DNA of 32,000 nt from Rhodobacter capsulatus SB 1003. GTDB lineage: Bacteria > Pseudomonadota > Alphaproteobacteria > Rhodobacterales > Rhodobacteraceae. The DNA lies in NCBI RefSeq assembly GCF_000021865.1, contig NC_014035.1, positions 30,001 to 62,000 on the forward strand. The letters are read 5' to 3'. Made by a program: the position numbers and the translations under genes. Below, piece after piece: positions 1 through 17,029 of the stretch; positions within the stretch are counted from its first letter, which is position 1, and every line of letters begins with the position of its first letter. A model generated the notes under the pieces. That model was not told where the DNA came from. It saw only the letters and a program-made list of their open reading frames with translations, and made no database searches.

Positions 1-859
1 CCACGGCAAAGCGCACCGCATGCGGGATCACCAGACCGACGAAGCCGATCGAGCCGACAAGGCTGACCATCGTCGCGGTCATCAGCGTCGTCGCGCCGAT
101 CAGCACCAGCTGCACCCGACGCACCGCAATGCCAAGCGCCGCCGCCGATTGCGCGCCGAATACAAAGGCATCCATCGCCCGGACATGCCAGAGACAGACC
201 AGAAACCCCAAGGCCGCCGCAGGCGCGGCCAGCGCCACATCCGGCCAGCGCACCCCGGAGAGATTGCCAAGAAGCCAGAACATGATCCCCCGCGCCTGTT
301 CGGCATTGGCCGATTTCGCGATGAAGAAACTCGTCAGGGCGTTGAAGAGCTGCGATCCCGCGATCCCGGCCAGCACCAGTTGCGCGGGCCCCCCTCCGGC
401 GGCCCGGGCCAGCGCCGCGACCAGCCCGAAGGCCAGAACCGCGCCGACGAAGGCGCCCCCGGACAGGCCAAGCGCGCCTCCGCCCACGCCAAGGATGGTC
501 ACCGCCACCGCCCCGGTCGACGCGCCGGCCGACACGCCCAGCAGGTAGGGATCGGCCAGCGCATTGCGGATCAGCGCTTGCAGCACGACGCCCGAAAGCG
601 CCAGCCCGGCGCCGCAGCCCGCCGCCACCAGCGTGCGGGGCATCCGGTAGTTCCAGATGATCGCCGCATCGATCGGATCGACGGGATGGCCCGCGTTCCA
701 AAGCTCATTGGCCAGAACCGCCGCCACCGTCGAAACCGGCAGCGGCGTTTCGCCGATGACGACCCCCGCAAGGATCGCCATCGTCAGCACGGCAGCCCCA
801 AGCATCCCTCGCCACAGGAGAGACCGGGCACGCCAGCCGGAAGCTGCCGCCGCCATCAT
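1..859 (-). CDS. FecCD/BtuC-family ABC transporter permease (3' end cut by window edge)
   Basis: It is absent from the ORF track because there is no stop codon in the window. My translation from ATG 859..857 gives MMAAAASGWRARSLL...LIRNALADPYLLGVSAGASTGAVAV...FNALTSFFIAKSANAEQARGIMFWLLG...GFVGLVIPHAVRF. This is colinear with and very similar to the complete permease at 4101..5141. The start overlaps the upstream stop (ATGA). Confidence 0.85.
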   Translation of the reverse strand, partial: MMAAAASGWRARSLLWRGMLGAAVLTMAILAGVVIGETPLPVSTVAAVLANELWNAGHPVDPIDAAIIWNYRMPRTLVAAGCGAGLALSGVVLQALIRNALADPYLLGVSAGASTGAVAVTILGVGGGALGLSGGAFVGAVLAFGLVAALARAAGGGPAQLVLAGIAGSQLFNALTSFFIAKSANAEQARGIMFWLLGNLSGVRWPDVALAAPAAALGFLVCLWHVRAMDAFVFGAQSAAALGIAVRRVQLVLIGATTLMTATMVSLVGSIGFVGLVIPHAVRFAV

Positions 860-1866
860 TTCAGACCGAATGCCGGCAGGGCTTCAACCAGCGTCTCGAG
901 CGCGGTGACGTTGCGGATCGAGGGATCCATCGCATGGGCATCCAGAATGACGATCCGGTTGTTCTTCACCGCATCCATCTGGCGCGTCACCGGATCGGAT
1001 TTCAGGAAGGCGAGTTTCTTTTCGTAATCATCCGCCTCGAAGCGGCGCCGGTCCATGCGGGCGATGACGATCACCGAGGGATTCGCCCGCGCGATGGTTT
1101 CCCAGCTTACGGTCGGCCATTCCTCGTCGCTCTCCACGACATTCTTCAGCCCCAGTTTCTCCATCATGTAGCCGGGCGGCCCTTTGCGGCCCGCAACATA
1201 GGGGTCGACATCCATCTCGGCCGAGGAAAACCAGAACACCGCCGACGCGTCATGCAGATCGAGCGCCCGGGCCTTTTCGATCGCCACGGCCTCGCGCGCC
1301 TTCAGATCGGCGACAAGCGCATCGGCCCGGTCCGAAACGTCGAAGATCTGCCCCAACTGGGTCACGCCCGCATGGATCGAGGCCATCTCGAACATCGCGC
1401 TGCGGGTGCCGTCGGAGCCGGTGCTGTTGTCCTTTTTCCAGCAATCGGCGGGCAAGACATAGGTGGGGATGCCGACATCGGCGAACTGTTCCCGCGTGGC
1501 GACGATGCCTTGCGGCCCCACATGCCATTCGTATTGCACGGCGACCAGTCCCGGCTTTTTCGCCACGACCGATTCAAAGCTCGGGTCATTGTCGGCCAGC
1601 CGCGCGACGCGGGCATTCGTCTCGCGGAACTCCGGAAGGACCTCGGTGAACCAGACCGAGGTGCCGGTCACCTTGTCGCCAAGGCCAAGCGCATAGAGGA
1701 TCTCGGTCGCGGCCTGCCCCACGGTCACGACGCTGTCGGGCGCCTTCTGAAAAGTCAGATCGACACCGCAGTTCTTCAGCTGCAGGGGATAGGTGGTTTC
1801 GGCCATGACGGGCGACGCGAAGCCGGTCGCGCAGGCAAGCGCGACAGTCAGGGAACGGACAAACAT
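856..1866 (-). CDS. Periplasmic substrate-binding protein of a FecCD-type (iron-siderophore/cobalamin class) ABC importer
   Basis: 336 aa ORF with a signal peptide (MFVRSLTVALACATGFASPVMA). It is a paralog of the binding protein at 5138..6172, sharing YPL..NC..TF.KAP, FWFSS and DPSIR blocks. A GGAGA SD lies 5 nt before the ATG. It sits downstream of a cobalamin riboswitch. Confidence 0.9.
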   Translation of the reverse strand: MFVRSLTVALACATGFASPVMAETTYPLQLKNCGVDLTFQKAPDSVVTVGQAATEILYALGLGDKVTGTSVWFTEVLPEFRETNARVARLADNDPSFESVVAKKPGLVAVQYEWHVGPQGIVATREQFADVGIPTYVLPADCWKKDNSTGSDGTRSAMFEMASIHAGVTQLGQIFDVSDRADALVADLKAREAVAIEKARALDLHDASAVFWFSSAEMDVDPYVAGRKGPPGYMMEKLGLKNVVESDEEWPTVSWETIARANPSVIVIARMDRRRFEADDYEKKLAFLKSDPVTRQMDAVKNNRIVILDAHAMDPSIRNVTALETLVEALPAFGLK

Positions 1867-2044
1867 GAAAAGTCTCCGGATGTCAGGGCAGCCGGGGACA
1901 GATCAGGAAAGGTCGGCCATGGCGTGTTCCTGCGGCACCCCTGCGGGCCGCGCACGAACTGGCTGGAGGGTGCGCAAACGCACCCAAGGGCAAAAGTCAT
2001 TCGACACCTCCCCGGACACCCCGCCCGGGCCGCATTGCGTTTCG

Positions 2045-2215
2045 ACGTGTCGGCAGGTCTCCTGACTGGCGGGTCATCGAGGTTTCGCGGCCTTCCCATG
2101 GCATGCGCCACAGTGACTTTGGGTGCGAAACCCCTCGCCGCCTACAGTTGCGGGGGCAGTTCCGGTTCGTCAGACGCTTCTGACAACGGATTCCCTTTCA
2201 ATTCCTTTCGGAAAC
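2045..2215 (-). promoter_or_regulatory. Cobalamin (B12) riboswitch, leader of the 1866..1 ABC operon
   Basis: The minus-strand RNA reads ...UUCCGAAAGGAAUUGAAAGGGAAUCC...CUGCCCCCGCAACUGUAGGCGGCGAG...GUCACUGUGGC...CAUGGGAAGGCC...GACCCGCCAGUCAGGAGACCUGCCGAC. The B12 box AGUCAGGAGACCUGCC is at 2052..2067. All hallmark conserved blocks are present in the canonical order. Confidence 0.9.
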
Positions 2216-2385
2216 CGACGCCGCTGGTTACCCCGAACGTGGCGGAACGGCAAGCGCGAGAAGCGAAAAACCGTTGTTTCTGCTGCAAATTATATCTCGG
2301 ACAGATCGAACCTCGCGCTTCGGCGGGTCCATCCCCCGAGACGGCGGGCGGGCAGAGCGGCCCCGATGATCGAGCGGTTTCGTGA

Positions 2386-3342: not shown

Positions 3343-4104
3343 TCAGGCGCGGAAACGGATATGCGGCGGCCCGGCCGTTGTCGAGGTGGCGATCTCTGCC
3401 TCCACCCGGAACACGGCGCGCAGCAGCTCGGCGGTCAACACGGCCTCGGGCGTGCCGCAGGCCACGACACGGCCCGCCTCCAGCACGACGATCCGGTCGC
3501 AGAACATCGCGGCGAGGTTCATGTCATGCAGCGCGATGATGCTTGTCAGATCAAGCTCGCGCACCATGCGCAGGATCGCGATCTGATGATGGATGTCGAG
3601 ATGGTTGGTCGGCTCGTCAAGAAACAGGATGCGCGGCGCCTGGGCCAATGCCCGGGCGATGTGGACCCGCTGCTTCTCGCCGCCCGAGAGGGTCTGCCAG
3701 GGCTGCGCGCGGCGCCCCTCCATGTCGACGCGGGCCAGCGCCGAGGTGACCGCCGCCTCGTCCTCCGCCGACCAGCCCGAGAGGGCGGAGCGGTGCGGCG
3801 TCCGCCCCAGCCGCACCACGTCGCGGACCGAGACATTGCTGTCGGTCGCGGCGCTTTGCCGGACGAAGGCCAGCTGCCGCGCCAGCGCCCGGCGCGGGAG
3901 GCGCGCGATATCCTGCCCCTCGATCTCGACGAAACCGGCCTGCGGGCGCTTCAACCCGGCAAGCAGCCGCAGCAGCGAGGACTTGCCCGAGCCGTTCGGC
4001 CCGATCAGGCCCAGCGTCTCGCCCCGCGCCACATCAAGCGAGACATCCGCGACGATGGTCCGCTTGCGGATGCCCCAGGTCAGATTGCGGGCGGCGATGG
4101 TCAT
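3343..4104 (-). CDS. ABC transporter ATP-binding protein (FecE/BtuD-like)
   Basis: 253 aa with Walker A GPNGSGKSS, signature LSGGEKQRV, Walker B ILFLDEPTNHLD and an H-loop ALHD. Its start overlaps the permease stop. Confidence 0.92.
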   Translation of the reverse strand: MTIAARNLTWGIRKRTIVADVSLDVARGETLGLIGPNGSGKSSLLRLLAGLKRPQAGFVEIEGQDIARLPRRALARQLAFVRQSAATDSNVSVRDVVRLGRTPHRSALSGWSAEDEAAVTSALARVDMEGRRAQPWQTLSGGEKQRVHIARALAQAPRILFLDEPTNHLDIHHQIAILRMVRELDLTSIIALHDMNLAAMFCDRIVVLEAGRVVACGTPEAVLTAELLRAVFRVEAEIATSTTAGPPHIRFRA

Positions 4105-5141
4105 GATTGCGGCCGGGAACGATAGAGGATGATGGCGAAGAAGGGCACGCCGACCAGGGCGGTGACGACGCCGATGGGAATGGTCTGCTGCGCGACGATC
4201 ACGCGCGCGGCGATGTCGGCCAGCACGAGGAAGATTGCCCCCGCAGCCGCGCAGGCCGGGATCAGCCGCAGATGCATCGGCCCGACGATGAAGCGTGCCG
4301 CATGGGGCACGACAAGCCCGACGAAGCCGATGGCGCCAACCATGCTGACGATGGTCGCGGTCATCATCGCCGTCACGCCGAACAGGATCAGGCGGATGCG
4401 CGCCACCGGCACGCCAAGCGCCGCGGCATCCTCGTCGCCGAAGGTGAAGGCGTCAAGCGAACGTGCCATCAACAGGCAGATCGCAAGGCCCGTCATCACG
4501 ACGAGGATCAGAAGCTGGAAATCCGGCCAGCGCACGCCGCCGAAGCTGCCCAGCAACCAGAACATCACGTCGCGCGCCTGCTGGGCATTGCCCGAGGTGG
4601 TGACGATATAGGAGGTCAGCGCGTTGAAAAGCTGCGAGGCGGCGACCCCCGCGAGGATCGTGTGGTTCGGCCCGCTGGTCGCGCCGTTCGACAAAAGCGC
4701 CACCAGCGCGAAGGCAGCGAAGGCGCCCGCGAAAGCCCCCATGGGACAGCGACAGCCCGCCCGGCCGATGCCCAGCACGATGACCGCCACCGCGCCGGTC
4801 GAGGCCCCCGCCGAGACGCCCAGCACGAAGGGTTCGGCCAGCGGGTTGCGCAGCAGCGCCTGCAGGATCGCGCCGCAGATGGCCAGCCCCGCGCCCGCCA
4901 GCGCCGCGACCAGCGCACGGCTCAGCCGCAGGTCCCAGACCACGCTCTGCTCGATGCGCGGGATCTCGGCGGTCGTGAGGCCCAGCCCGTTGCCCACCGC
5001 CAGCACGACCGTGCCAAGCGCAATGGCATAATCGCCGACGGTCATCGCCACCGCGACGGCAAGACACAGAACCAGAAGGGACACCGTCAGAAGCAAGAGG
5101 AATTTCCCCGCCCCGCTTCCGGTCTCGTCACGAATGCTCAC
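4101..5141 (-). CDS. FecCD-family ABC transporter permease
   Basis: 346 aa polytopic membrane protein with typical FecCD blocks (LLRNPLAEPFVLGVSAGAS, FGDEDAAALGV, GFVGLVVPHAARF). It has 4-nt overlaps with both neighbouring genes. Confidence 0.92.
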   Translation of the reverse strand: MSIRDETGSGAGKFLLLLTVSLLVLCLAVAVAMTVGDYAIALGTVVLAVGNGLGLTTAEIPRIEQSVVWDLRLSRALVAALAGAGLAICGAILQALLRNPLAEPFVLGVSAGASTGAVAVIVLGIGRAGCRCPMGAFAGAFAAFALVALLSNGATSGPNHTILAGVAASQLFNALTSYIVTTSGNAQQARDVMFWLLGSFGGVRWPDFQLLILVVMTGLAICLLMARSLDAFTFGDEDAAALGVPVARIRLILFGVTAMMTATIVSMVGAIGFVGLVVPHAARFIVGPMHLRLIPACAAAGAIFLVLADIAARVIVAQQTIPIGVVTALVGVPFFAIILYRSRPQS

Positions 5142-6214: not shown

Positions 6215-6322
6215 ATCCCCGCAACCCGCGGAACTCAAGAGTGTTTCACTCAGGAACTGCGGGCGAAACAGGGGCTTTGTTGCACAACGCCGACGTGCGG
6301 CGGTGTGGCACCTTTTGCCCCC

Positions 6323-7183
6323 GACTGGAGGGTGACCGGCGGCCTGCGCTATCAGCGCGACGACGTGGAGCGGCGCGGCACCACCAGCTTCACGCCCGAG
6401 GTGCTGGATTACGACCGGAGCTTCGATGCCTGGCTGCCGAAGCTTGCGCTGACCCATGACCTGAACGACACCACCAGCATCGGCGCGATGGTCAGCAAGG
6501 GCTACAACCCGGGCGGGGTGACGCTTGGCTTCGTGTCAAGGCAATATGTGACCTTCGAGCCGGAAACGGTCTGGAACTACGAGCTTTTCGGCCGCACGAA
6601 GCTGTTTGACGAGCGGCTCGACCTGACCGGGAACCTGTTTTACAGCCGGATGAAGAATGCGCAGCGCTATGTGACCTCGGTGATCGAGGGCGGCTATACC
6701 GATGCGGTGACCGTCAATGCCGACAAGGCGGAATCCTACGGGATGGAGCTGGGCTTCAGCTTCGCGGCGCGCGACGACCTGACCCTGCGCGGCAATCTTG
6801 GCCTTTTGCACACCGAAATCGTCAGCTTCGAGAATGCGCTGGCCGATTACGAGGGGCATGAATTCGGCCGCGCGCCCAGCCGCACGCTCAGCCTTGGTGC
6901 GGATTGGGCGATCCGTCCCGATGTGACGCTGGCGGGCACGGTGCGTTACACCGACGCCTATTTCTCGGATGACACCAATGCGACGGCGCTTCTGATCGAC
7001 GCGCATACCGTGGCCGATGCCCGCGTGACCTGGACCCCGCGCGAGGATCTGTCGCTTTTCGCCTATGTGAACAACATCTTCGACGATCGTTCGGTGACCA
7101 ACCTGCGGTCGCTGCAGGGATCGCTGCAGGGCACCGTGGTCGATCCGCGCTCGGCCGGCGTCGGCCTGAAAATGACCTTCTGA
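6323..7183 (+). pseudogene. TonB-dependent receptor, C-terminal ~286 aa only (plug and N-terminal barrel missing)
   Basis: This is the tail of track ORF 5174..7183: DWRVTGGLRYQRDD...GYNPGGV...NLFYSRMKNAQ...YVNNIFDDRS...AGVGLKMTF*, with a terminal aromatic residue. Everything upstream of about 6320 in that ORF is antisense to the binding-protein gene, so it is not part of this protein. Confidence 0.75.
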
Positions 7184-7241: not shown

Positions 7242-7943
7242 TCAGGGCAGCAGCGCGCCGTTCAGCCGGTTCTGGGCGTGGATCTGGATGAAGACCTCGA
7301 ACATATGCGCATCAAGGGGCGCGGTACCACCCGACAGCGCCGCCTCGACCAGATCTATCGGGATTTCGCTGTGCGGCATCGAGGCGGTGATCTGGTCGCG
7401 CACCGCGGTGATCAGCGCGCGCGGGGTCGCATCGCCGGGGGCGCGCAGGCAATGCGCGGTGACGGTGGTGAAATAGCCGATCGTGTCGAACCAGGCCGGA
7501 TCGGTGCGGCCCGCGGCCGAGGTGCCGATGGTCAGCGCCTCAAGCCCGGCCAGCCGCTGCAGCGCCACAGAGATCGCCGCATAGACGGTGTTGAACAGCG
7601 AGGCCGAGCAGGTCTTTGCCAAGGCATGCAACCCGGCGCAGACCGCGGGCGGCACGGCGATTTCGCACCAGCCGCCCGCCGTCGCATCCTCCGGGGCCGC
7701 ATCCTCGGGGGTCGCGGGCCGGGACGCTGCGCCCGGGGCACGGATCGGCTGCGGCGGCGGCGCGTCGCGCAGAGCCGTGACCCAATGTTCCAGCGACCGG
7801 GCGTCGATGCCGGCACTGGCCCGGGCGCGAGCAAAAGCGTGAAACGGTGCGACCGGTCCGGCCCAGTCGGGGGCCCGTTCCGCCGCCCGGGCGGCATAGG
7901 CGCAGGCCAGCTCGGCCATCATCAGGTTGAGCCTGACCTCGCC
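7242..7943 (-). pseudogene. NRPS-type condensation-domain protein, C-terminal half only
   Basis: The C-terminal part of ORF 7242..8225 shows C-domain motifs after the His motif: LMMAELACAYAA (post-C3), SLFNTVYAAISVALQRL, IGYFTTVTAHCLR (C5-like IGxFVNT..R) and HSEIPIDL (C6-like). The catalytic HHxxxDG region and everything N-terminal of it is absent, replaced by IS-derived sequence. Confidence 0.6.
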
Positions 7944-7981
7944 CCTCAGGCCTTCGCGGCGCTTCCCGCTGAATCGTCGGT

Positions 7982-8575
7982 CTTGGCTACAACGCCGAGG
8001 GGCAACTGATCCGGCCGTTACATCGAGGAGGCGGACCGGATCGACCGTCAGGAAACCGGCGCGGCGCGGGCCGAGCGGGCGGCCCATCTGAAGGGGCGAT
8101 ACCATGGCATTCGTCAGCAGATCGAACGTTTGCTGGCGATGGAAAAGGCGCTGGACGATGCGCCGGACGGGCAAATTTCGCTGACCGACCCAGATGCCCG
8201 GGCGATGGCAACGCGCGCGCAGCACAGACGCTATTGGCGCGGCGGGTGTTCAAGCTGCGAAATCAAACGCCGTTGCACGACGATCCATGAAGGACGGGGG
8301 GCTCTGAACGACGGGTTTCGCGGTGGGAACACGAGCATCTGGTCGAGGCATCGGATGCGCGCCGACGCAGCGCCGGCGCGCCGATGCGGGTGCGAAGATC
8401 AACCGTCGAGCACCCGTTCGGCACGATCAAGGCCTGGACCGGGTCCTGCCATTTCCTGACCAAGCGGTTTCAAGGGGTGGGCACGGAAATGGCGTTGAAC
8501 GTGCAGGCCTACAACATCAAGAGAATGATCTCCTTGGTGGGCATGCCGAGGTTGGTGGCTGCAATCCAAAGGTGA
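7982..8575 (+). mobile_element. IS1182-like (IS5 superfamily) transposase remnant, frameshifted and internally deleted
   Basis: Fragments occur in different frames: YIEEADRIDRQETGAARAERAAHLKGRYHGIRQQIERLLAMEKALDDAPDGQISLTDPDARAMAT, then ...CEIKRRCTT..., RWEHEHLVEA and MRVRRSTVEHPFGTIKAWTGSCHFLTKRFQGVGTEMALNVQAYNIKRMISLVG. The DDE catalytic core between SLTDPDA and the Cys-rich/VEHPFG tail is missing. Confidence 0.7.
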
Positions 8576-8896
8576 TCGCGGGAAAATCGGCGATCTCAAG
8601 CCCGAGAATGGCGCCTTTTGAGCCCGAAAAGGCCCTCAAAACAGGGGTTCGGAGAAATTGGTTCTGAAAACCGCCGGAACGGGGCAGAGCGCCTACGATT
8701 TGAAACCAAAATCTGAGTTTTCACACAGCCTCGGCCGGTCGCTTCCTGTCTGAGCGCTGCGGTGCAGCTTCACGAGACCGGCCATTCGTCCATCGTGCAG
8801 CATTTCGGAAGGTGAAGGTTGGCTGCGCGGGCGAAGCTGCCGTTGCCGGCTCATGAAACGCAGCCTATTGGTATCCTTGGTTTACGCGAGGATTTC

Positions 8897-9835
8897 ATGC
8901 GCCTGCTTACCCTACTTCTGCTATCTCTTCCTGCATTGGCAATGGCCGAACCGGTTCACATTCCCGGACCGCAGGGTCAGCTTGAGGCGGAAATGGTCGC
9001 CGTCGATAGGGCTGGTCATGTGATCATCATCATTCCTGGGTCGGGTCCGACGGACCGGGACGGAAATTCGCCGCAGATGGGCCTCTCGACTGACACCTAC
9101 AAGTTACTGGCCGAGGCATTTGCCGAACAAGGCATCGCCTCATTGCGTATCGACAAGAGGGGGTTTTATGGCAGCGCCGGGGCTATTTCCGATCCCAACA
9201 ATGTCACTATTCGTGCGTATGCCGAAGATGTGCGCGATTGGGCAGCATACGCCTCAAGTGTCGCACCTTGTGTATGGCTTGCCGGGCATTCCGAAGGTGG
9301 ACTGGTGGCCCTTGTGGCCGCCCAAGACGCGCCGGAAAATCTCTGCGGCTTGATCCTTCTGGCAACGCCGGGGCGCCCGATAGGGCAGCTCATGGTCGAA
9401 CAGTTCAAGGCCAATCCGGCAAACGCTCCTTTGATGCCTGAGATCGGCGCCATCGTAGCTGATCTTGAAGCGGGCGAGGCCCGCGATCCAGATTCCATGT
9501 CCGCGGTGCTGCGTCCGCTATTCTCTTCGGGACTTCAGCGCTACATGATCGACCTCTTCTCTTATGACCCCGTAGAGATTGCCAAAGAATGGAACGGCCC
9601 CGTGCTGATCGTCCAAGGAAGCGAAGACACGCAAGTCCGACCTCGCGATGCCGATCTTCTGGCCAGTGCGCTGCGTCAGTCCCAACGGATCAATCTTGTC
9701 CGGGGAACGCATATGCTGAAGACAGCGGTCGCCGGGAAACCCTTTGCCACATATACTGACCCATCTCTCCCTCTCTATGAAAATCTCGTGCCCGGCATCG
9801 CCAGCTTTATGGACGAATCTGCGCGTCCCGACTGA
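8897..9835 (+). CDS. Secreted alpha/beta-fold serine hydrolase
   Basis: The start was moved from the track's TTG (8819) to ATG 8897, which has a GAGGA SD 5 nt upstream. This gives the signal peptide MRLLTLLLLSLPALAMA. A nucleophile elbow GHSEGG and a C-terminal His region (RGTHML) are present. GC content and codon usage are lower than in the neighbouring genes. Confidence 0.8.
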   Translation: MRLLTLLLLSLPALAMAEPVHIPGPQGQLEAEMVAVDRAGHVIIIIPGSGPTDRDGNSPQMGLSTDTYKLLAEAFAEQGIASLRIDKRGFYGSAGAISDPNNVTIRAYAEDVRDWAAYASSVAPCVWLAGHSEGGLVALVAAQDAPENLCGLILLATPGRPIGQLMVEQFKANPANAPLMPEIGAIVADLEAGEARDPDSMSAVLRPLFSSGLQRYMIDLFSYDPVEIAKEWNGPVLIVQGSEDTQVRPRDADLLASALRQSQRINLVRGTHMLKTAVAGKPFATYTDPSLPLYENLVPGIASFMDESARPD

Positions 9836-10037
9836 CAACTTGGGGCTCGGAGCTGACCTCTGTCTCGCCGCAGCATGCCCCGAATCGCGGACATCTCGCG
9901 ACGTCGAGATCGGCCCTAAGCCGCCGGTCGAGGCCATGTCTTCGCCGCAACGCAGCTGGCTCGAAGCGGACGGTCAACATTCGATACAGCAAAATCTTGA
10001 GCGAACGTCGCTGAGGCGATCTGGATACGGAACAGGC

Positions 10038-10631
10038 TCAGGGGGCCAGCTTCAGGCAAGGGGCATCCGGCGCGAAGAACCGGGTCGCATCATGGCTGGT
10101 CTCGATCAGGGCAAATCCCGTTTCCGCCCGGCTTCGCTCCAGAAAATCCCTGCTGCGCGCGAGGCTCTCGGGGTCGAGCCCCGAGACAGCCTCGTCCAGG
10201 ATCACAAGATCCGGCCGGATCGCCAAGGCGCGCAGCAAGGCCACCCGTTGCGCTTGCCCCTTCGACAAGAGCGGCGCAGGCAGCGCGGCACAGGCGCCAA
10301 GACCCAGCTGATCCAGCGCCTCTTGCAGCCAGACCGTCTGCGGCCGGGGCAGCGGCAGGGCGACGTTGCCCCGCGCCGAAAGGCCGGGGATCAACCTTGG
10401 CTCGGCAAAGGCGAAGCCGATGCGAAGCCCGGGCTTGCGGATGACCTCGCCGCGAACCGGGCTGGGCAGACCCGCAAGATGGCGCAACAGAGCCGTCTTG
10501 CCCGCGCCGCTGGCGCCGTTCAGGCGCAGGCTTTCCCCGGGGCCGAGCGTCAGCGCCAGCGGACCGAAAAGCGCGCGCTGATGCCCCGGGGGGCACAGGC
10601 CGAGCGCGGTTGCACGGATCAGCATGGTCAT
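10038..10631 (-). CDS. ABC transporter ATP-binding protein, short (197 aa), NitT/TauT-type operon
   Basis: The start is taken at MTMLIRAT (ATG 10631, an ATGA overlap with the permease stop). It has Walker A GASGAGKT, signature variant LSKGQAQRV, Walker B LVILDEAVSGLD and H-loop TSHD. Confidence 0.85.
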   Translation of the reverse strand: MTMLIRATALGLCPPGHQRALFGPLALTLGPGESLRLNGASGAGKTALLRHLAGLPSPVRGEVIRKPGLRIGFAFAEPRLIPGLSARGNVALPLPRPQTVWLQEALDQLGLGACAALPAPLLSKGQAQRVALLRALAIRPDLVILDEAVSGLDPESLARSRDFLERSRAETGFALIETSHDATRFFAPDAPCLKLAP

Positions 10632-11386
10632 TTGCGCCGCGCCCTGCGGTCCGCCAGGGCCAGCAGCGCCTCTGCTCCGGCGATCATCAGCAGGACCACG
10701 AAGGTCAGGGCAAGAAGCCGGTCCGTCATCAACCATGTCTGCGCCGACTGGATCGCGCGGCCAAGTCCCTGACCGCCGCCCAGAAGCTCGACCAGCAGGG
10801 TGATGCGCAGCCCGTTGGCCACGGCGACACGCAGCGCGGGCATCAGCGCGGTTGCAAGCGCAGGCCACAGGACATGGCGCAACCGCCGCAGGCGGGGGAC
10901 GTGGAACAGCCGTGCCATCTCGTCAAGTTGCGGGTCGATGGCGCCAAGGCCCGCAGTCGTCGCGATCTGGAACACCGGCACAAGCAACGCGGACACGGCC
11001 GCCACCACCATCGTCCCGCCGCCCTCGAGCCAGAGGATCAGCAGAATCGCCAGCACGGCCGCGGGCAGACCCATCAGGACCAGCCGCAAGGGCGCCAGAG
11101 CTGCGCCGATCAGCGGCCAGCGAAAGGACATCCATCCAAGCACGAGACCAAAGAACAGCGCCAACAGCACGCCGGCAAGCGCTGCGGCGAGGCTGGGCGC
11201 AAGGCTCCCGGTCCAGAATGTCCGCTCCCCCAGAAGTGCAATCAGCGCGCGTCCGACCGCCAGCGGCCCGGGCAGGATTGCGGGCAGTGTCTGCCGTGCG
11301 ATCACCTCCCAAAGCAGCAGGAGCAGCCCTGCTCCGGCCAGACCGGCCCCAAGACGCGCCGCCTTGGCGGGAGGAGACGGGCTCAC
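10628..11386 (-). CDS. ABC transporter permease (BPD_transp_1, NitT/TauT/ThiX-like)
   Basis: GTG start at 11386 overlapping the binding-protein stop (GTGA). The product VSPSPPAKAARLGAGLAGAGLLLLLWEVIARQ... has about 6 TM segments and an EAA-like loop (DEMARLFHVPRLRRLRHVLWPALATALMPAL). The long N-terminal extension of track ORF 10628..12001 is rejected. Confidence 0.8.
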   Translation of the reverse strand: MSPSPPAKAARLGAGLAGAGLLLLLWEVIARQTLPAILPGPLAVGRALIALLGERTFWTGSLAPSLAAALAGVLLALFFGLVLGWMSFRWPLIGAALAPLRLVLMGLPAAVLAILLILWLEGGGTMVVAAVSALLVPVFQIATTAGLGAIDPQLDEMARLFHVPRLRRLRHVLWPALATALMPALRVAVANGLRITLLVELLGGGQGLGRAIQSAQTWLMTDRLLALTFVVLLMIAGAEALLALADRRARRK

Positions 11387-12312
11387 TTTCGGATCCCGGA
11401 GGCATAGAACTCCGGTCCCGGCAGCGTGCCGCCGATTGCCTGCGGGGCGAGGTCGAAGATCTCGCCGTAAAAGGCCCTCAGGGGGGCAGCATCGGCGGGC
11501 ATGACCAGAAGGCTGGCGGTGATGCCCGCAAAGGCCGATGCCCCGGGCCCGGTCGAGAGTTCCGGAAAAAAGCCCGCCAGAAGAGCATGTGCCTGCCCCG
11601 GAGTGGCCGCGAGGTCCGAATGAGCCGTTTCCAATGCCGTGACGATCTTTCCGCGCGCAGGCAAATCGGGGCTTGCAAGCAGTGCGCCGCCGGGCGGGCA
11701 GGCCGTCGCGCCGGTGGCTTTTTGCCAGAGCGGACACAGATCGGAACGCCGCCGCAATGTCGGGTCCGCCGCGAGCGCCGCACTGGCCATCGGTTCGGCC
11801 AGAAGCGCGAGATCCGCCTTGCCGGCCAGCAGCATCTGCATCGAAGCCGGATAGGCGCCGGTGTAAAGCGGTTGCCAGGCCGTTGTGCCAAGAATTCGGC
11901 GCAGCATCAGATCGGGCAGATTGCCCTCGAAGGGCACGGTGATCTTCAGACCGCTCAGCGCTTCCGGCCCATCCAGATCGGAGCCGCGCCCGATCAGCCA
12001 CAGATTGCCCCCGGTCACGCTGGCCGCAAGAAGATCGCCTTTCATCCCGCGCGCCTGCAACAGGGGCGCCATGAGCACCGGCGCCATCGCCACCACCGGC
12101 CGCCCGGAAGCGAGCTCCTTGCGCAGCGTTTCAGGATTGGTCCAGGGCCGGAAGGTGAAGGTGATCCCGTCGGCTGCCAGCGGTTGTTGCGCGGCAAGCG
12201 CGATCAGCGGGGCCGAGTCCCAGATCGGCGGGCCGGTCAGGATCACTTCCTCGGCTCGCAGGGGGGCGGGCAGGCCAAGAAGCAGCGCGGCGAACAGAGG
12301 GAGCAAGTTCAT
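11383..12312 (-). CDS. Periplasmic substrate-binding protein, NMT1/ThiY/SsuA-like (NitT/TauT family)
   Basis: 309 aa with signal peptide MNLLPLFAALLLGLPAPLRA and a PBP type-2 pattern. It has 4-nt overlaps with both neighbours. Confidence 0.75.
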   Translation of the reverse strand: MNLLPLFAALLLGLPAPLRAEEVILTGPPIWDSAPLIALAAQQPLAADGITFTFRPWTNPETLRKELASGRPVVAMAPVLMAPLLQARGMKGDLLAASVTGGNLWLIGRGSDLDGPEALSGLKITVPFEGNLPDLMLRRILGTTAWQPLYTGAYPASMQMLLAGKADLALLAEPMASAALAADPTLRRRSDLCPLWQKATGATACPPGGALLASPDLPARGKIVTALETAHSDLAATPGQAHALLAGFFPELSTGPGASAFAGITASLLVMPADAAPLRAFYGEIFDLAPQAIGGTLPGPEFYASGIRK

Positions 12313-13352
12313 CTGGGGGGCGCCTTGGGGTCAGAAGGGGAAAGGGATTTGCGGCCCATGTCGACGCGGAACCGGCCGAAGGGCGTTCCGATCCATTTCG
12401 AACTGACGGCAAGGCCTGCCTGTGCCATCGCATCGGCGATCTCGCCATCGTCAAAGGAAACGTCGCGCTGCCACAGCGCGGGCATCAGACGGCCGATCAC
12501 ATGTTCCTCGGGGGCGCAGCGTCCCTCGGTCAGCGTGGCATGCAGCGAGACGAACACCCCCCGAGGCGACAGCCGCTCGGCGATCCGCCCAATCAAGGCG
12601 CTGATCCCCCGATCATGGAAATAGAGCGTCATCGAGGCGAAGATCATGTCGAAGGCCCCTTCGGGCAGCGGATCGTTGTAGCTGCCCGGATGCACCCGCA
12701 CCGACAGTTCCGCCAGTTCTGCCGCGATGCGCTCGGCGACCGGCGGCAGGTCCAGAAGGGTGATCCGCAGATCGTGTCGCAGGGCAGACAAGGCGCGGGC
12801 AAGCGTTCCCGAGCCGGGGCCGATCTCGAGCAAGCTTTGCGCGCTTTCCCATTCCGGCAGACCGGTCAGACACGGAAGCATCACCTCTGCCGCCGCGCCG
12901 CGATGAAACGAGGCAAGGCTTTCATGCGCGCGGTTCCAATAAGCCGCGTCAAACAGCGGCCGCTCCGGAGAGGGCCGCTCCGGCGCCAGAAGCTCGGCGA
13001 TCCGGTCCAGCCCCGCATGCCTGAGCCGCGCCAGCGCCTGCAGGCTGGGGATCAGGCTGGTCGGGCTTCGCGCCGACAGCAGCGGCAACAGATCGGGCGG
13101 CGTCTGGAACGTTTCGCCCGCCCGGTCCAGAAATCCGCAAGCCACAAGGGCGCGCAGGACCAGCGTCAGTCGATCCGGATCCAGACCCTGCGCCAGCGCC
13201 AGATCGGACGCCCCGACTGGCGCCGCGCAAAGATCGAAGAGTCCCGTTTGCATCGCATGGTCGAGCAGGGCAAAGCGGATCGGCCCCTCGATCGTCTCGA
13301 ACAGCACATGCGCCCCCTGATCGCGGCGGGGAGCCGTCTCCGGAGTCACCAT
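12309..13352 (-). CDS. Class I SAM-dependent methyltransferase with N-terminal winged-helix dimerisation domain (O-methyltransferase family-2-like)
   Basis: 347 aa with no signal peptide. The N-terminal region LLDHAMQTGLFDLCAAPVGASDLALAQGLDPDRLTLVLRALVACGFLDR resembles a dimerisation/wHTH domain. SAM motif I is LLEIGPGSGTLA, followed by ITLLDLP and MIFASMTLYF. The start overlaps the receptor stop (ATGGTGA). Confidence 0.85.
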   Translation of the reverse strand: MVTPETAPRRDQGAHVLFETIEGPIRFALLDHAMQTGLFDLCAAPVGASDLALAQGLDPDRLTLVLRALVACGFLDRAGETFQTPPDLLPLLSARSPTSLIPSLQALARLRHAGLDRIAELLAPERPSPERPLFDAAYWNRAHESLASFHRGAAAEVMLPCLTGLPEWESAQSLLEIGPGSGTLARALSALRHDLRITLLDLPPVAERIAAELAELSVRVHPGSYNDPLPEGAFDMIFASMTLYFHDRGISALIGRIAERLSPRGVFVSLHATLTEGRCAPEEHVIGRLMPALWQRDVSFDDGEIADAMAQAGLAVSSKWIGTPFGRFRVDMGRKSLSPSDPKAPPR

Positions 13353-15439
13353 TGCGTCGTCCAGTTCAGCCCGAAGCTGCGCGGCTGGCCATCCTCGACC
13401 AACGTGCCGTAGAACGAGCGCAGCGACAGCGCGGCATATTCCTCGTCAAAAAGGTTGTGCGCCCAGAGCGTCAGCACTCCGTTACCCAGATCGCGGCTGA
13501 TCGAAGCGTCGACGATCCGGTAGCCATCCTGTTCCAGAGTGTTGGCCGCGTCGAAATAGGACGACCCGTAGCCGTTGACTGCAGCGCGCGCACGCCAGCC
13601 ATCGCCGCCTTCCCAGGTCACACCAAGACCGTAACTCAGGTTTGGAGCCATCGGCAGCTGGTTGCCGGAATAATCCACCGGCCCAGCACCCGTGCGGGTC
13701 ATGAAGGAGGTTGCCCGCGCATGCTGCCATCCGAGCGATCCATCAATCTGCCAGCCATGACCAAGGGGGGCGGACAGCGCCGCCTCCAGCCCATAGCTTT
13801 CGGCCTCGGCGGCGTTCGAGATTTTCTGAACCGCGCCCACCACCGTTTCGGTGATCTGCTTGTCCTTCACCGTGGTGTGAAACCCGGTCAGGCTGAGGCT
13901 CGCGTCATTGAGAAAGATGGTTTTCAGACCGATTTCCGCGTTCCAGCTGTATTCGGGCGCGTAGATCAGGCTCGCGGCATTGCCCGCAAAGGCATAGTTG
14001 TAACCAGCGGGCATGTAGCCGCGCGCATAGGAGGCGTGCAGCGTCGTGCGGTCGGAGATATCCCACGCCAAAGTGGCTTTCGGCAGCGGCGTCGTCGTCG
14101 CATCCGAGGCGGCATAGCTGCCCGCCAGCGAGAAGGTCTGGCTGGCAGAGCTGGCGATATGGTCGATCCGCAGCCCGCCGCCAAGACGGAGCCGGTCAGT
14201 CAGCGCAACCTCGCCAAGGCCGTAAAGTGCGACACCGTTTTGCGTGATGCTGGTCACCCGGCGCGCGCCCATTCCGCGCAGGTCGAAATCCACGTCGGTT
14301 GCCTGATGATAAGCGTGAAGGCCCAAAGACCATTTGAACCGTTCGGCGCCCTCGAGCGAACTCAGCCGGATCTCCTGAGAGATCATGCGGTCCTTCAGAT
14401 CGAAAGCCGTCACGGCGACCCCGGGGATTGGCGGGAGCGGGCTGGAATCGGTATCGAGCAGGAAATCGCGATCAAAGGTGGTGAAGCCGGTGATGGTGGT
14501 CAGATCGAACCCGTCCAGGGTCTGGGCATAGTCCAGCGAAGTGACGCTCGAACGGCGGTTTTCCCGGGATGGATCGCTGTAGCGACTTTCGTAGCGGCCG
14601 GTCGCCTGCGGCCCGTCGATGTAGCGATACTGCTCCTTGCCGAGGGTCTCGTCTTCGCCAAGGAAGCTGACCCGCAGCGTGCCACCGTTTTCGAAAGCCC
14701 AGGCCGCCCCCGCCAAGAGGCTGGTTCGGCCTTCGCGTCCGCCATCGTCATCGCCGCCCGGGCGCGGGTCCGAGATCACCCCGTCCGTTTTCGACCGCTC
14801 CAGGCCGAACAGCAGTGCCGGAGCCCCCTCCTTCGCCGCGCCCCAAAGCACCGAGGCGGTATAGCCCGGCGGCTGCGCCCCGGCATCCGAGCCGGAAACG
14901 CCAAAGCCCAACTTGACCCCGGTGAAATCGCCCGGGCGCAGCGTGTCGTAGATCAGCAGACCGGCTTCGCTATTGCGCCCGAAGGCCGTTCCCTGCGGCC
15001 CTTTCAGCAGTGTCACCTGTTCGGCGGCGAAAAAATGCGGCAGTTGCAGCGTCCCGAGCGGCAGGGCGACGCCATTCACCTGGTAACCGACCGGGTCGCT
15101 CAACGCGTTGTCAAAGGCGGAAAGGCCGCGAACCACCAGACGCTCACCGGAATTCGCGCGCTGAAACAGAACATTGCCCGCCCGTGCCGTCACCGCCTCA
15201 AGATCCGGGGCGTTGCGCTCGGCCAGATCCGCGCCGTCAATCACGGTTGCATCGCTGGCGGAGCGCAGCGCGGTCTCACTCCAATGACTGGGTGAGATCT
15301 CGATGGTGCCAAGGTTGGTCGCCTCCTGCGCGCAAAGGCCGACAGGGGTGGCGCCAAGCGCAAGGGCGGCAACCGAAATCAGGACCCCGCGATGGCGCGG
15401 GCCGGGCAGTGGCGGCAAGAAAAGAGGGGCAGGGCACAT
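13346..15439 (-). CDS. TonB-dependent outer-membrane receptor
   Basis: 697 aa with a signal peptide, plug motifs (VVRGLS..., VNGVALP, TLLKGPQGTAFGRNSEAG), a long beta-barrel and a C-terminal ...FGLNWTTQW*. A GAGGA SD lies upstream. Confidence 0.92.
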   Translation of the reverse strand: MCPAPLFLPPLPGPRHRGVLISVAALALGATPVGLCAQEATNLGTIEISPSHWSETALRSASDATVIDGADLAERNAPDLEAVTARAGNVLFQRANSGERLVVRGLSAFDNALSDPVGYQVNGVALPLGTLQLPHFFAAEQVTLLKGPQGTAFGRNSEAGLLIYDTLRPGDFTGVKLGFGVSGSDAGAQPPGYTASVLWGAAKEGAPALLFGLERSKTDGVISDPRPGGDDDGGREGRTSLLAGAAWAFENGGTLRVSFLGEDETLGKEQYRYIDGPQATGRYESRYSDPSRENRRSSVTSLDYAQTLDGFDLTTITGFTTFDRDFLLDTDSSPLPPIPGVAVTAFDLKDRMISQEIRLSSLEGAERFKWSLGLHAYHQATDVDFDLRGMGARRVTSITQNGVALYGLGEVALTDRLRLGGGLRIDHIASSASQTFSLAGSYAASDATTTPLPKATLAWDISDRTTLHASYARGYMPAGYNYAFAGNAASLIYAPEYSWNAEIGLKTIFLNDASLSLTGFHTTVKDKQITETVVGAVQKISNAAEAESYGLEAALSAPLGHGWQIDGSLGWQHARATSFMTRTGAGPVDYSGNQLPMAPNLSYGLGVTWEGGDGWRARAAVNGYGSSYFDAANTLEQDGYRIVDASISRDLGNGVLTLWAHNLFDEEYAALSLRSFYGTLVEDGQPRSFGLNWTTQW

Positions 15440-15536
15440 GTCACGGTCCTCGCTGCGGATGGGCGCCTGCGGGTTAACACGGGCCTGCCGCCCCGACTTT
15501 CATCCGGGCAAATAAATCTTCCATTCGGCGAAACCA

Positions 15537-16565
15537 TCAGTTGCGCTGGCTGCCATGGCGGCGCCAGCTGCGCGCGGTCATGCCGAAGCGCTTGCGAAAG
15601 GCGGTGCTCAGATGGCTGGGGCTGGAAAAGCCGCAGTCATAAGCGATTTCTGTCAACGAGCGGCCTTGATGGCCGATCAGTTCTGCCGCTCGCTCCAGCC
15701 GGAGTTCTCGCAAGCGCTCGAAGACGGTCGTGCCGGTTTCGCGACGGAAGCAGCGGTTGAGCGTGACATGGCTCAGGCCCAGATCCTGCGCCAGATCGTC
15801 AAGACTGAAGGTCTCGGCCAGCCGGTCGCGCAGCAGCGCCTCTGTGCGCGCCACCAGCAGCATTGCCTCGGGCATGGCCCCCGCACGGCCCTGCTGCGCC
15901 AGTTCCTCGAAGACATTGCCGACGAGGGCGAGGCAATCTCCCTCCTTGCGCAGCAGCGCCGCCGGGGTGTCGGCGCCATCAAAAAAGCGTTCCGGCAGCC
16001 CGCGCGCCGGACGCGACAGCCGAAACCTGCGCACCATCCCCGGGTCGGGCAATTCCTGCGCGATCACCCGGCACAGCCGTTCCGTGACCGCTTCGGCCTC
16101 GATCACGATGACCAGATTGGAACAGCCCTGCCCGGGATGCAACACACGCGTCAGGGCTTCGGAGTTGGTGCGCAGCACCCATCCCTCGCCGTTGCAGATG
16201 TCGTGATCACGCCCCGCGGCGTCCCGGATCGTCATGATCCCCAAGAGGTTGAAGGCGATCAGCAACCGACCGGCGGGCCAAAGGATGACATCCTCTCGTC
16301 CCCGGCCGGGGGCGAATTGGCTCAGCGCGACCGAGATCCCCGGCCCGAGCCGCAGCAGATCGATCCGCGTTGCAGCGCCGACCCCGGGCAGGGTGATCCG
16401 TGTGGTCTCGCCCTCTCCCGGAAGCGAGCGGGCCGGTTCGATCCGGCCGGAAACAGCCGCGCCCGGTCCCCGGCGATGATCCGGACAGGGGGCCGATGCG
16501 GGTTTGGCGACATCCGCAAAATCAGAAACCCGGCTGCGGGCAGCCGATGACAAGCCAGACTCCAT
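15537..16565 (-). CDS. AraC-family transcriptional regulator
   Basis: 342 aa with a C-terminal double HTH (LDDLAQDLGLSHVTLNRCFRRETG...LTEIAYDCGFSSPSHLSTAFRKRFGMTARSWRR). A strong GGAGG SD lies 4 nt before ATG 16565. Confidence 0.9.
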   Translation of the reverse strand: MESGLSSAARSRVSDFADVAKPASAPCPDHRRGPGAAVSGRIEPARSLPGEGETTRITLPGVGAATRIDLLRLGPGISVALSQFAPGRGREDVILWPAGRLLIAFNLLGIMTIRDAAGRDHDICNGEGWVLRTNSEALTRVLHPGQGCSNLVIVIEAEAVTERLCRVIAQELPDPGMVRRFRLSRPARGLPERFFDGADTPAALLRKEGDCLALVGNVFEELAQQGRAGAMPEAMLLVARTEALLRDRLAETFSLDDLAQDLGLSHVTLNRCFRRETGTTVFERLRELRLERAAELIGHQGRSLTEIAYDCGFSSPSHLSTAFRKRFGMTARSWRRHGSQRN

Positions 16566-16599
16566 AATTCCTCCGATCCGTCACACCCGACGGCTGAGC

Positions 16600-16800
16600 C
16601 AGACTGCAAGGTCGGTCTCCTGACTTGCGGGTCGCTGCCTTCCCGCCCTTCCCATGTCCGGCGTCAGTCCGGGCCACAGTGGATTTTCGGGTCGGCTCGC
16701 CGCTCACAGTCGCGGGGGCGGTCGGATTTGGCTCTTGCCCTCCTGCAAGCCGCAGGCGGGATGGCTGTCCTGTTCCCTGCCATCGGATCTGCGATGGCAC
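16600..16800 (-). promoter_or_regulatory. Cobalamin (B12) riboswitch in the leader of the AraC regulator gene
   Basis: The minus-strand RNA reads ...GGAGGGCAAGAGCCAAAUCCGACCGCCCCCGCGACUGUGAGCGGCGAG...AUCCACUGUGGC...CAUGGGAAGGGCGGGAAGGC...GACCCGCAAGUCAGGAGACCGACC. The B12 box is at 16610..16625. It shares the blocks GCCCCCGCxACUGU, CACUGUGGC, CAUGGGAAGG and GACCCGCxAGUCAGGAGACC with the riboswitch at 2045..2215. I could not identify the P1 pairing by eye. Confidence 0.8.
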
Positions 16801-17029
16801 CATGCACGGACGAAGGCTGCCAGTTCGGGACAGGAAGGTCAAGCTGTCCGGAACGCCCGGCCGCCTCGCCCTCGCGCCGCGGTGCCGCGCTCCGCCGTCT
16901 CTCGACGGCCTGCCGGAAAGTCTTGCCTGGCCGTCGAAGCTGGACCTGACGCGGATCATCCCTTACGGTCGGGAGGGTCTGCTTGCTCGCAGCGGCATCT
17001 ACCCCACCGACGTCCTGGAGGATCTACCT

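Follow-up and report, generated by a model that had tools for sequence, protein, structure and literature searches.

What a five-gene operon of Rhodobacter capsulatus SB 1003 takes up, and why one of its genes should encode a methyltransferase, is the question raised by a 32,000-nucleotide stretch of contig NC_014035.1 (positions 30,001 to 62,000 of the forward strand; hereafter the window, in whose own numbering its coordinates are given). The operon, on the minus strand, encodes in one chain a TonB-dependent outer-membrane receptor, a small-molecule methyltransferase (MT), and the substrate-binding protein (SBP), permease and ATPase of a NitT/TauT-like ATP-binding cassette (ABC) importer, and it lies behind a gene for an AraC-family activator that is itself preceded by a cobalamin riboswitch. 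The reading that we favour, tentatively and at somewhat less than an even chance, is of a module that is complete in itself, moves horizontally and takes up a small metal chelator (a metallophore or a xenosiderophore), with the MT modifying the imported ligand. Control by B12, judged from the related loci, appears to be a local rewiring and not the general purpose of the module, since the module looks iron-regulated elsewhere and the riboswitch is found only in the R. capsulatus lineage.

As to the architecture, the minus strand between 9900 and 16900 was read directly, and all four stop/start overlaps of the original prediction are real: the MT gene (12309..13352, 347 aa) starts with an ATG at 13352 within ATGGTGA (13352-13346), in which the TGA of the receptor gene (13346..15439, 697 aa) ends at 13346; the MT gene overlaps the SBP gene (11383..12312, 309 aa) by ATGA (12312-12309), the SBP gene overlaps the permease gene (10628..11386, 252 aa) by GTGA (11386-11383), and the permease gene overlaps the ATPase gene (10038..10631, 197 aa) by ATGA (10631-10628). 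Also correct were the 97-nt gap between the AraC gene (15537..16565, minus strand, 342 aa), whose stop codon finishes at 15537, and the start codon (ATG) of the receptor gene at 15439, the cobalamin riboswitch ahead of the AraC gene (RF00174, 16593-16819) and the domain assignments, which agree with Pfam and NCBIfam domain searches; the view of a single translationally coupled five-gene unit behind a riboswitch-controlled AraC gene is right, and the pairing of a TonB receptor with a NitT/TauT-type importer and a family-2 MT is indeed unusual. The same tight junctions come back in orthologous loci, so the overlaps are not due to chance. Of the 28 orthologous loci, 26 have the receptor and MT genes at a spacing of -7, -4 or -1 nt or of no more than +11 nt, making this pair the invariant core and the coupling a trait of the family, and the permease-ATPase spacing is -4 in most loci. 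As no intrinsic terminators were found either in the AraC-receptor intergenic region or after the ATPase gene, transcription from the riboswitch promoter may run through into the operon.

When a single genome was scanned for each species, 31 loci were found, in nearly all of which the AraC gene adjoins the receptor gene. The full ordered set, AraC-receptor-MT-SBP-permease-ATPase, is present in approximately 17 alphaproteobacterial loci, the hosts including Paracoccus denitrificans DSM 413, Salipiger mucosus, Roseovarius pacificus, Pannonibacter, Nitratireductor, Gemmobacter, and Rhizobium, Agrobacterium and Mesorhizobium metagenome-assembled genomes, and the cluster is also found on a plasmid of Rhodovulum sulfidophilum. 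More distant loci, in Rhodospirillaceae, Insolitispirillum, Vibrio sonorensis and Marinagarivorans, keep the AraC, receptor and MT genes and have a permease of the major facilitator superfamily (MFS), with 12 transmembrane segments, in place of the ABC importer. Identity between the R. capsulatus proteins and their orthologues is 45-59% across all components, none standing out as retooled. The surroundings of the module are unrelated between genomes, suggesting an autonomous, horizontally transferred island. One example is Vibrio, where it is found between mfd/csiV/GNAT genes and a gene for a methyl-accepting chemotaxis protein; another is Marinagarivorans, where it is found between transposases. 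A third is presented by Roseovarius pacificus and P. denitrificans DSM 413 (loci L008 and L009), in which the module is next to trbB and the profiles of protein identity are identical, flanking genes included, suggesting either that a conjugative element transferred the module recently or that the assemblies are cross-contaminated. A plasmid search with the Paracoccus locus returned no match. Pden_2984 and Pden_4169 were considered as the operon genes of P. denitrificans and rejected, as the gene order does not fit.

The link to B12, claimed originally as a property of the system, does not hold up across these loci. RF00174 was detected in none of the 23 orthologous loci scanned outside R. capsulatus, the closest complete ones included, and the receptor is FyuA-like, with no BtuB-family match; co-occurrence of the riboswitch with the cluster, proposed as a check at the time, is limited to R. 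capsulatus, with one further locus (L114) keeping the leader hairpin. Several orthologous loci instead have Fur-like boxes or siderophore-gene neighbours, which is largely the situation that the original prediction had set against itself. Fur-like boxes are present in five loci. They precede the AraC gene in L018 (15/19 matches at -121), L020 from Insolitispirillum (13/19 at -69) and L027 (13/19 at -88); in Vibrio sonorensis (L022) the box, TTGATAACAATTATCATTT, is located 33-57 nt upstream of the AraC gene and is composed of two overlapping 14/19 matches, and in Marinagarivorans (L030) a 14/19 pair heads the whole island. In each of these loci (~21 kb) only 2-5 positions score as well, and the chance that one of them falls in the regulatory stretch of ~430 nt is ~4-10% per locus. 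The module thus looks, from such upstream sequences, iron-regulated in several other bacteria. Cascades in which an iron box governs an AraC-like gene, araX, and this in turn a ferrisiderophore operon, have been predicted for alphaproteobacteria, and four araX genes have been noted in R. capsulatus (Rodionov et al., 2006; PMC1698941). The Rhodovulum copy of the module is located 1.2 kb from entC/entB/entA and the genes for a dihydroxybenzoate (DHB)-AMP ligase, a nonribosomal peptide synthetase (NRPS), a phosphopantetheinyl transferase (PPTase) and a second receptor. In the window itself, an open reading frame (ORF) at 6314-7180 (+) encodes a TonB-receptor fragment, the C-terminal ~290 residues, with 57% identity to this second Rhodovulum receptor, and a lone NRPS condensation-domain ORF is present at 7242-8225 (-), both fragments being also present in another R. 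capsulatus record, L113. These fragments appear to be the relics of a decayed siderophore cluster that adjoined the operon.

The riboswitch of the window is nevertheless a real one, matching the full-length model (positions 1-189 of 189; 71.6 bits) over 16593..16819 (-), with 27 nt separating its end from the ATG of the AraC gene at 16565, and with the Shine-Dalgarno sequence GGAGG at 16574-16570. A hairpin of the leader, CCGTCGGGTGTGACGG, together with the Shine-Dalgarno sequence (16570..16600, minus strand) is the probable expression platform. The stretch GGCTCAGCCGTCGGGTGTGACGGATCGGAGG (window 16600-16570) is the same in 31 of 31 nt in L114 (GCA_035907055.1, the contig encoding P0041), which ends 46 nt upstream of the AraC ATG, while the AraC protein there is only 72% identical, indicative of selection on the leader RNA. 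Downstream of the start, inside AraC codons 7-12 (16530..16547, minus strand), a GC-rich hairpin followed by a T-rich tract (GTTTCTGATTTT) resembles a terminator. Its core, GGCTGCCCGCAGCC (codons 8-12), is kept in L114, with the adjoining coding sequence diverged and interrupted by indels, and it may be a part of the expression platform; terminator-like matches in the region number 9, not above the shuffle expectation of 5.0 ± 2.5. The AraC protein, recognized by its HTH_18 and HTH_AraC domains, starts right after the riboswitch with a low-complexity N-terminal extension of ~38 residues (16450-16565, minus strand), missing from most orthologues. These begin with MNLIEPHRF, and the window protein reads ...GRIEPARS at this point, with no start codon. 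Homologous extensions are present in P0041 (72% identity) and in P0042 from Paracoccus sp. IB05 (66%). The extension would mark the point of fusion with the riboswitch leader, and we infer that, in the ancestor of a subclade, this leader, bringing in a new start codon, replaced the 5' end of the AraC gene and any iron box along with it. Within a small clade, then, the riboswitch probably works, its RNA elements having since apparently been under selection. A metagenome scan with the AraC protein returned only generic helix-turn-helix (HTH) matches (25-42% identity), uninformative on riboswitch linkage, and a profile search of the Protein Data Bank (PDB) likewise matched only the HTH domain.

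Additional information comes from L113 (CP198950.1, a record of 163.8 kb). The AraC protein of the window is 90% identical to P0040, annotated as from Rhodobacter capsulatus, and the gene order in L113 is the same, from nosX/PepSY/NnrS and the TAXI-TRAP binding protein gene through the riboswitch, AraC, receptor and MT to the permease, ATPase, hydrolase, condensation fragment and receptor fragment. The leader is identical to that of the window except for one 4-nt indel (RF00174, 70.7 bits). Two frames appear disrupted in this record: the AraC gene has a frameshifted-looking stretch at approximately residues 190-235 (9001-10020), and the SBP frame runs for 463 codons into the permease gene (13245-14636), which may reflect errors in the sequence or an operon that is starting to decay. 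As to the window, it contains a second and stronger cobalamin riboswitch (106 bits; 2035-2234, minus strand), ahead of genes for a BtuF-like PBP2 protein (856-1866, minus strand) and a FecCD permease (2-790, minus strand), with no outer-membrane receptor gene beside this set in the window. The two riboswitches have only the conserved core in common, and recent duplication is rejected. The presence of two FecCD-type importers elsewhere in the window, as noted originally, is real (4101-5141; 2-790, the latter cut by the window edge).

The receptor possesses both the Plug domain (PF07715, 37 bits) and the 22-strand barrel (PF00593, 154 bits), each over cutoff. In a search of solved structures, its sole strong match is FyuA (PDB 4epa; E 1.8e-26, residues 62-692), the yersiniabactin/pesticin receptor, with FhuA and others matching at ~1e-5. 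On the TIGR01783 siderophore-receptor model it scores 148.1 bits, under the cutoff of 223.5, and is best regarded as a divergent relative of this class, not called a member of it. No B12-receptor (BtuB-type) model is found among its nine NCBIfam matches. Nor is the arrangement of a BtuB-type system found here: it is the AraC gene that has the riboswitch ahead of it, the receptor gene having an intergenic region of its own, with an operator-like repeat. This direct repeat, ATGGAAG-N14-ATGAAAG (15497..15524, minus strand), with 21-bp phasing and 58 nt before the receptor ATG, has the form typical of sites bound by AraC-type activators and is a probable operator; at the same position orthologues have TTCAAG...TACAAG (alphaproteobacteria) or ATGCATG...ATGAATG (L015 and L016).

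The importer is less easily placed. The SBP, which possesses a signal peptide and two invariant cysteines (Cys193 and Cys205), has no Pfam or NCBIfam match. Its AlphaFold2 (AF2) model, built from 6 sequences, was too poor for a fold search (predicted local distance difference test, pLDDT, of 53.5), and a profile of 16 sequences was compared with the PDB instead, matching 3hn0 (E 2e-19), a structural-genomics 'nitrate transport protein' of the NMT1-like type, with TauA at E 0.12 only. The NMT1-type superfamily proposed earlier for this protein is thereby supported, a match that does not reveal the ligand. The permease (BPD_transp_1) is NitT/TauT-like, its best NCBIfam matches all being under cutoff (SaoP, 48.6 bits versus 295; TauC, 29.5 versus 342; SsuC, 28.2 versus 347; and NtrB), and the ATPase belongs to ABC_tran.

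As to the MT, it matches Methyltransf_2 (PF00891) with 29.9 bits, over the cutoff of 22.3, and the dimerisation domain (PF08100) with 22.9 bits, under the cutoff of 25.6. It has no signal peptide, in agreement with a cytoplasmic location of this S-adenosylmethionine (SAM)-dependent enzyme. Its AF2 model (pLDDT 82) has a helical, winged-helix-like N-terminal domain and aligns over its full length with dimeric family-2 enzymes; the SAM motif EIGPGSG, D201 and D235 are conserved in the family. In Foldseek searches the model is matched at template-modelling scores of 0.65-0.72 and 17-24% identity by 3mcz, PigF, RedM, ASMT, DsyB, DtpM, SibL and BchU. Of these, PigF and RedM are O-methyltransferases, DsyB is an S-methyltransferase, DtpM S-methylates holomycin, SibL carries out a C-methylation, and 3mcz is uncharacterised. 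The original prediction called for a comparison with BchU and CrtF, and no equivalog-level match was found (TIGR02716, 21.9 bits versus a cutoff of 276), BchU structures ranking approximately 30th in the Foldseek list at 15-16% identity. Judged by profile and model, it is a bona fide small-molecule methyltransferase outside every known pathway cluster, and a rare one, with 31 clusters in 5.8e9 proteins, nearly all alphaproteobacterial.

The genes surrounding the module provide further observations. The commonest neighbouring Pfam family is Peripla_BP_2, TonB receptors and FecCD proteins also occur, and CobW/COG0523 genes adjoin two orthologous loci. Beside the module of P. denitrificans (L009, 13978-20796, minus strand) are encoded a second siderophore-type TonB receptor, a FAD monooxygenase and two ABC half-transporters, in which transmembrane and nucleotide-binding domains are fused and which have the exporter fold, as in YbtPQ and IrtAB; a further AraC gene and two such fused half-transporters are encoded in L018 (13499-18226). 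The transposase-bracketed Marinagarivorans locus (L030, 3194-10972) contains the Fur-like box, three small ORFs that cannot be annotated and a TcmP/LCM-like MT gene, followed by AraC-MFS-receptor-MT, and possibly represents the system in a more complete form. Thiamine pyrophosphate riboswitches are located within 5-6 kb of the module in Gemmobacter (L010, 12400-12504) and Nitratireductor (L012, 6119-6234), and are probably unrelated neighbours. In the window, a gene for an alpha/beta-hydrolase (Hydrolase_4/S33; 8819-9835, plus strand), in a stretch of lower GC content (0.59-0.61), converges on the end of the operon; it is kept in L113, although as a shorter gene call of 162 aa.

In the scheme suggested by these data, the FyuA-like receptor would carry a metal chelate across the outer membrane, and the NMT1/TauA-like SBP with the type I permease and ATPase would bring it into the cytoplasm, a step possibly taken over by the MFS protein in the distant relatives. 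The coupled MT would then methylate a donor group of the ligand, such as a carboxylate, a phenolate or a thiol, releasing the metal and/or neutralising the ligand. AraC would activate the receptor promoter via the 21-bp-phased repeat, with the ligand as a probable co-inducer, as in the PchR, YbtA and RhrA cascades. In several other hosts the Fur-type box on the AraC gene predicts control by iron; in the R. capsulatus lineage the riboswitch would limit AraC to conditions of low B12, resulting in an AND gate of low B12 and inducer. A known case of ligand methylation concerns pyochelin, which is taken up through FptA, a related receptor. Spm of Staphylococcus aureus, an MT encoded with fhuD1, the gene of a siderophore-binding protein, methyl-esterifies pyochelin and abolishes its binding of iron (PMC10592502). 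Literature searches returned nothing relevant on siderophore methylation as an iron-release step, and on PDTC/pdtK only unrelated 'PDTC' papers.

A number of observations weigh against uptake of a metal chelator as the role of this module. As to the importer, we know of no NitT/TauT-type ABC system that imports metal chelates. As to the MT, the nearest structures (17-24% identity) span O-, S-, N- and C-methylation and so point to no single chemistry, and His246, at the usual (LYFH) catalytic position, while present in R. capsulatus, is replaced in 4 of 18 family members. As to the transporters, the MFS proteins of the distant loci may serve for export rather than import. As to the iron link, no iron boxes are recognisable in most of the alphaproteobacterial loci, and TGA-N9-TCA, the core of the RirA/Iron-Rhodo site, is found upstream of AraC in 3 of 25 loci, no more often than in the background (these sites, similar to one another in having TGACTA and an AT-rich spacer, are not counted as evidence). 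The window has no iron box either, its best Fur score being 9/19 with no TGA-N9-TCA in the intergenic region, and the B12 riboswitch is the only recognisable control element there. Finally, the neighbouring genes are heterogeneous across loci, and the DHB and NRPS genes of Rhodovulum are absent from all other loci, so that adjacency to siderophore biosynthesis is not general.

Of the alternatives, the most interesting open one is a re-tasking toward cobalt, as B12 riboswitches typically govern cobalt supply. Under this proposal a siderophore-type module would have been acquired horizontally by the R. capsulatus clade, its iron box would have been swapped for a B12 riboswitch, and the MT would free cobalt from the imported chelate. 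The riboswitch-AraC fusion is real and apparently under selection in a small clade, being present in at least two lineages with the leader kept entirely and the protein diverged, so that a cobalt-related role in R. capsulatus has to be considered. Cobalt transporters are often under B12 riboswitches, yersiniabactin complexes of metals other than iron pass through receptors of the FyuA class, and the CobW/COG0523 genes next to two orthologous loci could be taken in the same sense. The components, however, have not visibly diverged from those of the Fur-box orthologues, and the frameshifted AraC and SBP genes of one R. capsulatus strain suggest decay; the capture of the riboswitch could also be regulatory noise, or could serve the sparing of iron or energy. 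On balance we consider this reading possible, with a low probability. Of similarly low probability, as a whole, is the joint proposition that donor-group methylation is a new way of handling metallophores, coupled to the receptor, and that capture of the riboswitch made for a B12-gated acquisition of a metal (cobalt).

Also possible, at a slightly lower probability, is that the module takes up an aromatic compound free of metal (for instance a toxin that is a phenolic or a thiol, or a chelator resembling an antibiotic) in order to detoxify or salvage it. AraC would sense this compound, the MT would inactivate it by methylation, and the MFS protein, where present, would export the product; the chief support comes from the efflux-like MFS proteins and from the DtpM-type neighbours. 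The MFS partners do resemble DHA1 efflux pumps of the Tet(A) type, including the bacillibactin exporter BcbE; DtpM, among the close structural neighbours of the MT, has a role in self-resistance; phthalate and other aromatic acids are imported by ABC systems of the NitT/TauT family; and Spm is a precedent for protection. An SBP-dependent importer together with a TonB receptor, however, represents an investment in uptake, not avoidance, the ABC-type loci have no exporter, and the Fur-like boxes and siderophore-gene neighbours suggest metal nutrition.

The original proposal, that a corrinoid precursor or a lower-ligand base (a hydroxybenzimidazole or a phenolic, in a BzaC-like step) is imported and methylated in the service of B12, now appears very improbable, and for substrates of this kind no positive evidence was found. 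In its favour are the riboswitch directly upstream of the activator gene, the retention of its leader in a second lineage, the riboswitch-controlled BtuF/FecCD importer of the window with no receptor nearby, and the fact that NMT1-type binding proteins handle small heterocycles. The orthologous loci argue otherwise, with RF00174 in none of them outside R. capsulatus and with Fur-like boxes or siderophore-gene neighbours instead in several, as do the best match of the receptor to FyuA and not to the BtuB family, the distance of the MT from BchU and CrtF, and the even conservation of all components, none visibly retooled. The lower-ligand idea is also a priori unlikely, since R. capsulatus makes dimethylbenzimidazole aerobically via BluB. 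About as unlikely is a minimal biosynthetic loop, in which the MT, as the sole enzyme, tightly coupled to the receptor, would convert a common metabolite into a methylated chelator to be secreted and re-imported, as O-methylation of xanthurenate gives quinolobactin: the extra small ORFs and the second, TcmP/LCM-like MT behind the Fur-like box of L030, as well as an efflux-like MFS protein as a possible exporter, would fit such a loop, but the ABC-type loci, the window included, have no exporter, no precursor-pathway genes are linked, and the usual effect of methylation is the loss of a donor group, not the gain of one.

Overall, if uptake and modification of a metal chelator is indeed the function, this would be a rare (approximately 30 genomes), mobile and uncharacterised module, with an obligate MT that has no counterpart in textbook siderophore systems, and possibly a new way of releasing the metal or neutralising the ligand. 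In R. capsulatus the module would be a natural case of regulatory rewiring, in which the mRNA for a transcription factor has gained a cobalamin riboswitch; riboswitch-to-regulator cascades are uncommon, and this one could tie B12 status to scavenging of trace metals (cobalt). As both P. denitrificans and R. capsulatus are genetically tractable, these questions are directly answerable.

In comparison with known systems, the module is close in its logic to the YbtA/FyuA/YbtPQ and PchR/FptA/FptX systems for yersiniabactin and pyochelin, in which an AraC activator is likewise encoded beside a FyuA-class receptor and an inner-membrane transporter. Here, as in cascades of the PchR/YbtA/RhrA type, the AraC gene adjoins the receptor gene and direct repeats are found in the receptor promoter, several orthologues have a Fur-like box on the regulator gene, and an MFS-type permease variant exists among the relatives. 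Unlike these systems, the module has no linked biosynthesis genes, its importer is an SBP-dependent one of the NitT/TauT type, neither YbtPQ nor FptX, it possesses an obligate, coupled cytoplasmic MT, and in R. capsulatus it is controlled by a B12 riboswitch and not by Fur. As to TauABC, SsuABC, ThiXYZ and NrtABC, they are the source of the best permease matches and of the fold relatives of the SBP; the permease matches, however, are far under the family cutoffs, neither Pfam nor NCBIfam has a model that fits the SBP, and to our knowledge none of these systems has a TonB receptor or a methyltransferase as a partner. The BtuB/BtuFCD systems under RF00174 share with the module the presence of a riboswitch and a TonB receptor in one regulatory chain, but the riboswitch here governs a transcription factor and not the transporter mRNA, the importer is of type I and not BtuCD, the receptor has no B12-receptor family match, and the orthologues have no riboswitch. 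The same logic of an AraC gene beside uptake genes of the siderophore type is found in the cascades from RirA or the iron box to araX/RhrA, in which the upstream signal differs, being here a cobalamin riboswitch on the araX mRNA (PMC1698941). Spm is similar in being an MT genetically linked to siderophore-uptake components, but it belongs to the TcmP/LCM family, while the MT of the module belongs to family 2 (a TcmP/LCM-like MT does occur in L030), its host is Gram-positive, with no TonB receptor, and the role of Spm is protective, with no nutritional role shown (PMC10592502). What emerges from these comparisons is a candidate AraC-controlled, TonB-dependent metallophore uptake module, set apart by its obligate MT, by its type I ABC partner and, in R. 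capsulatus, by a captured riboswitch.

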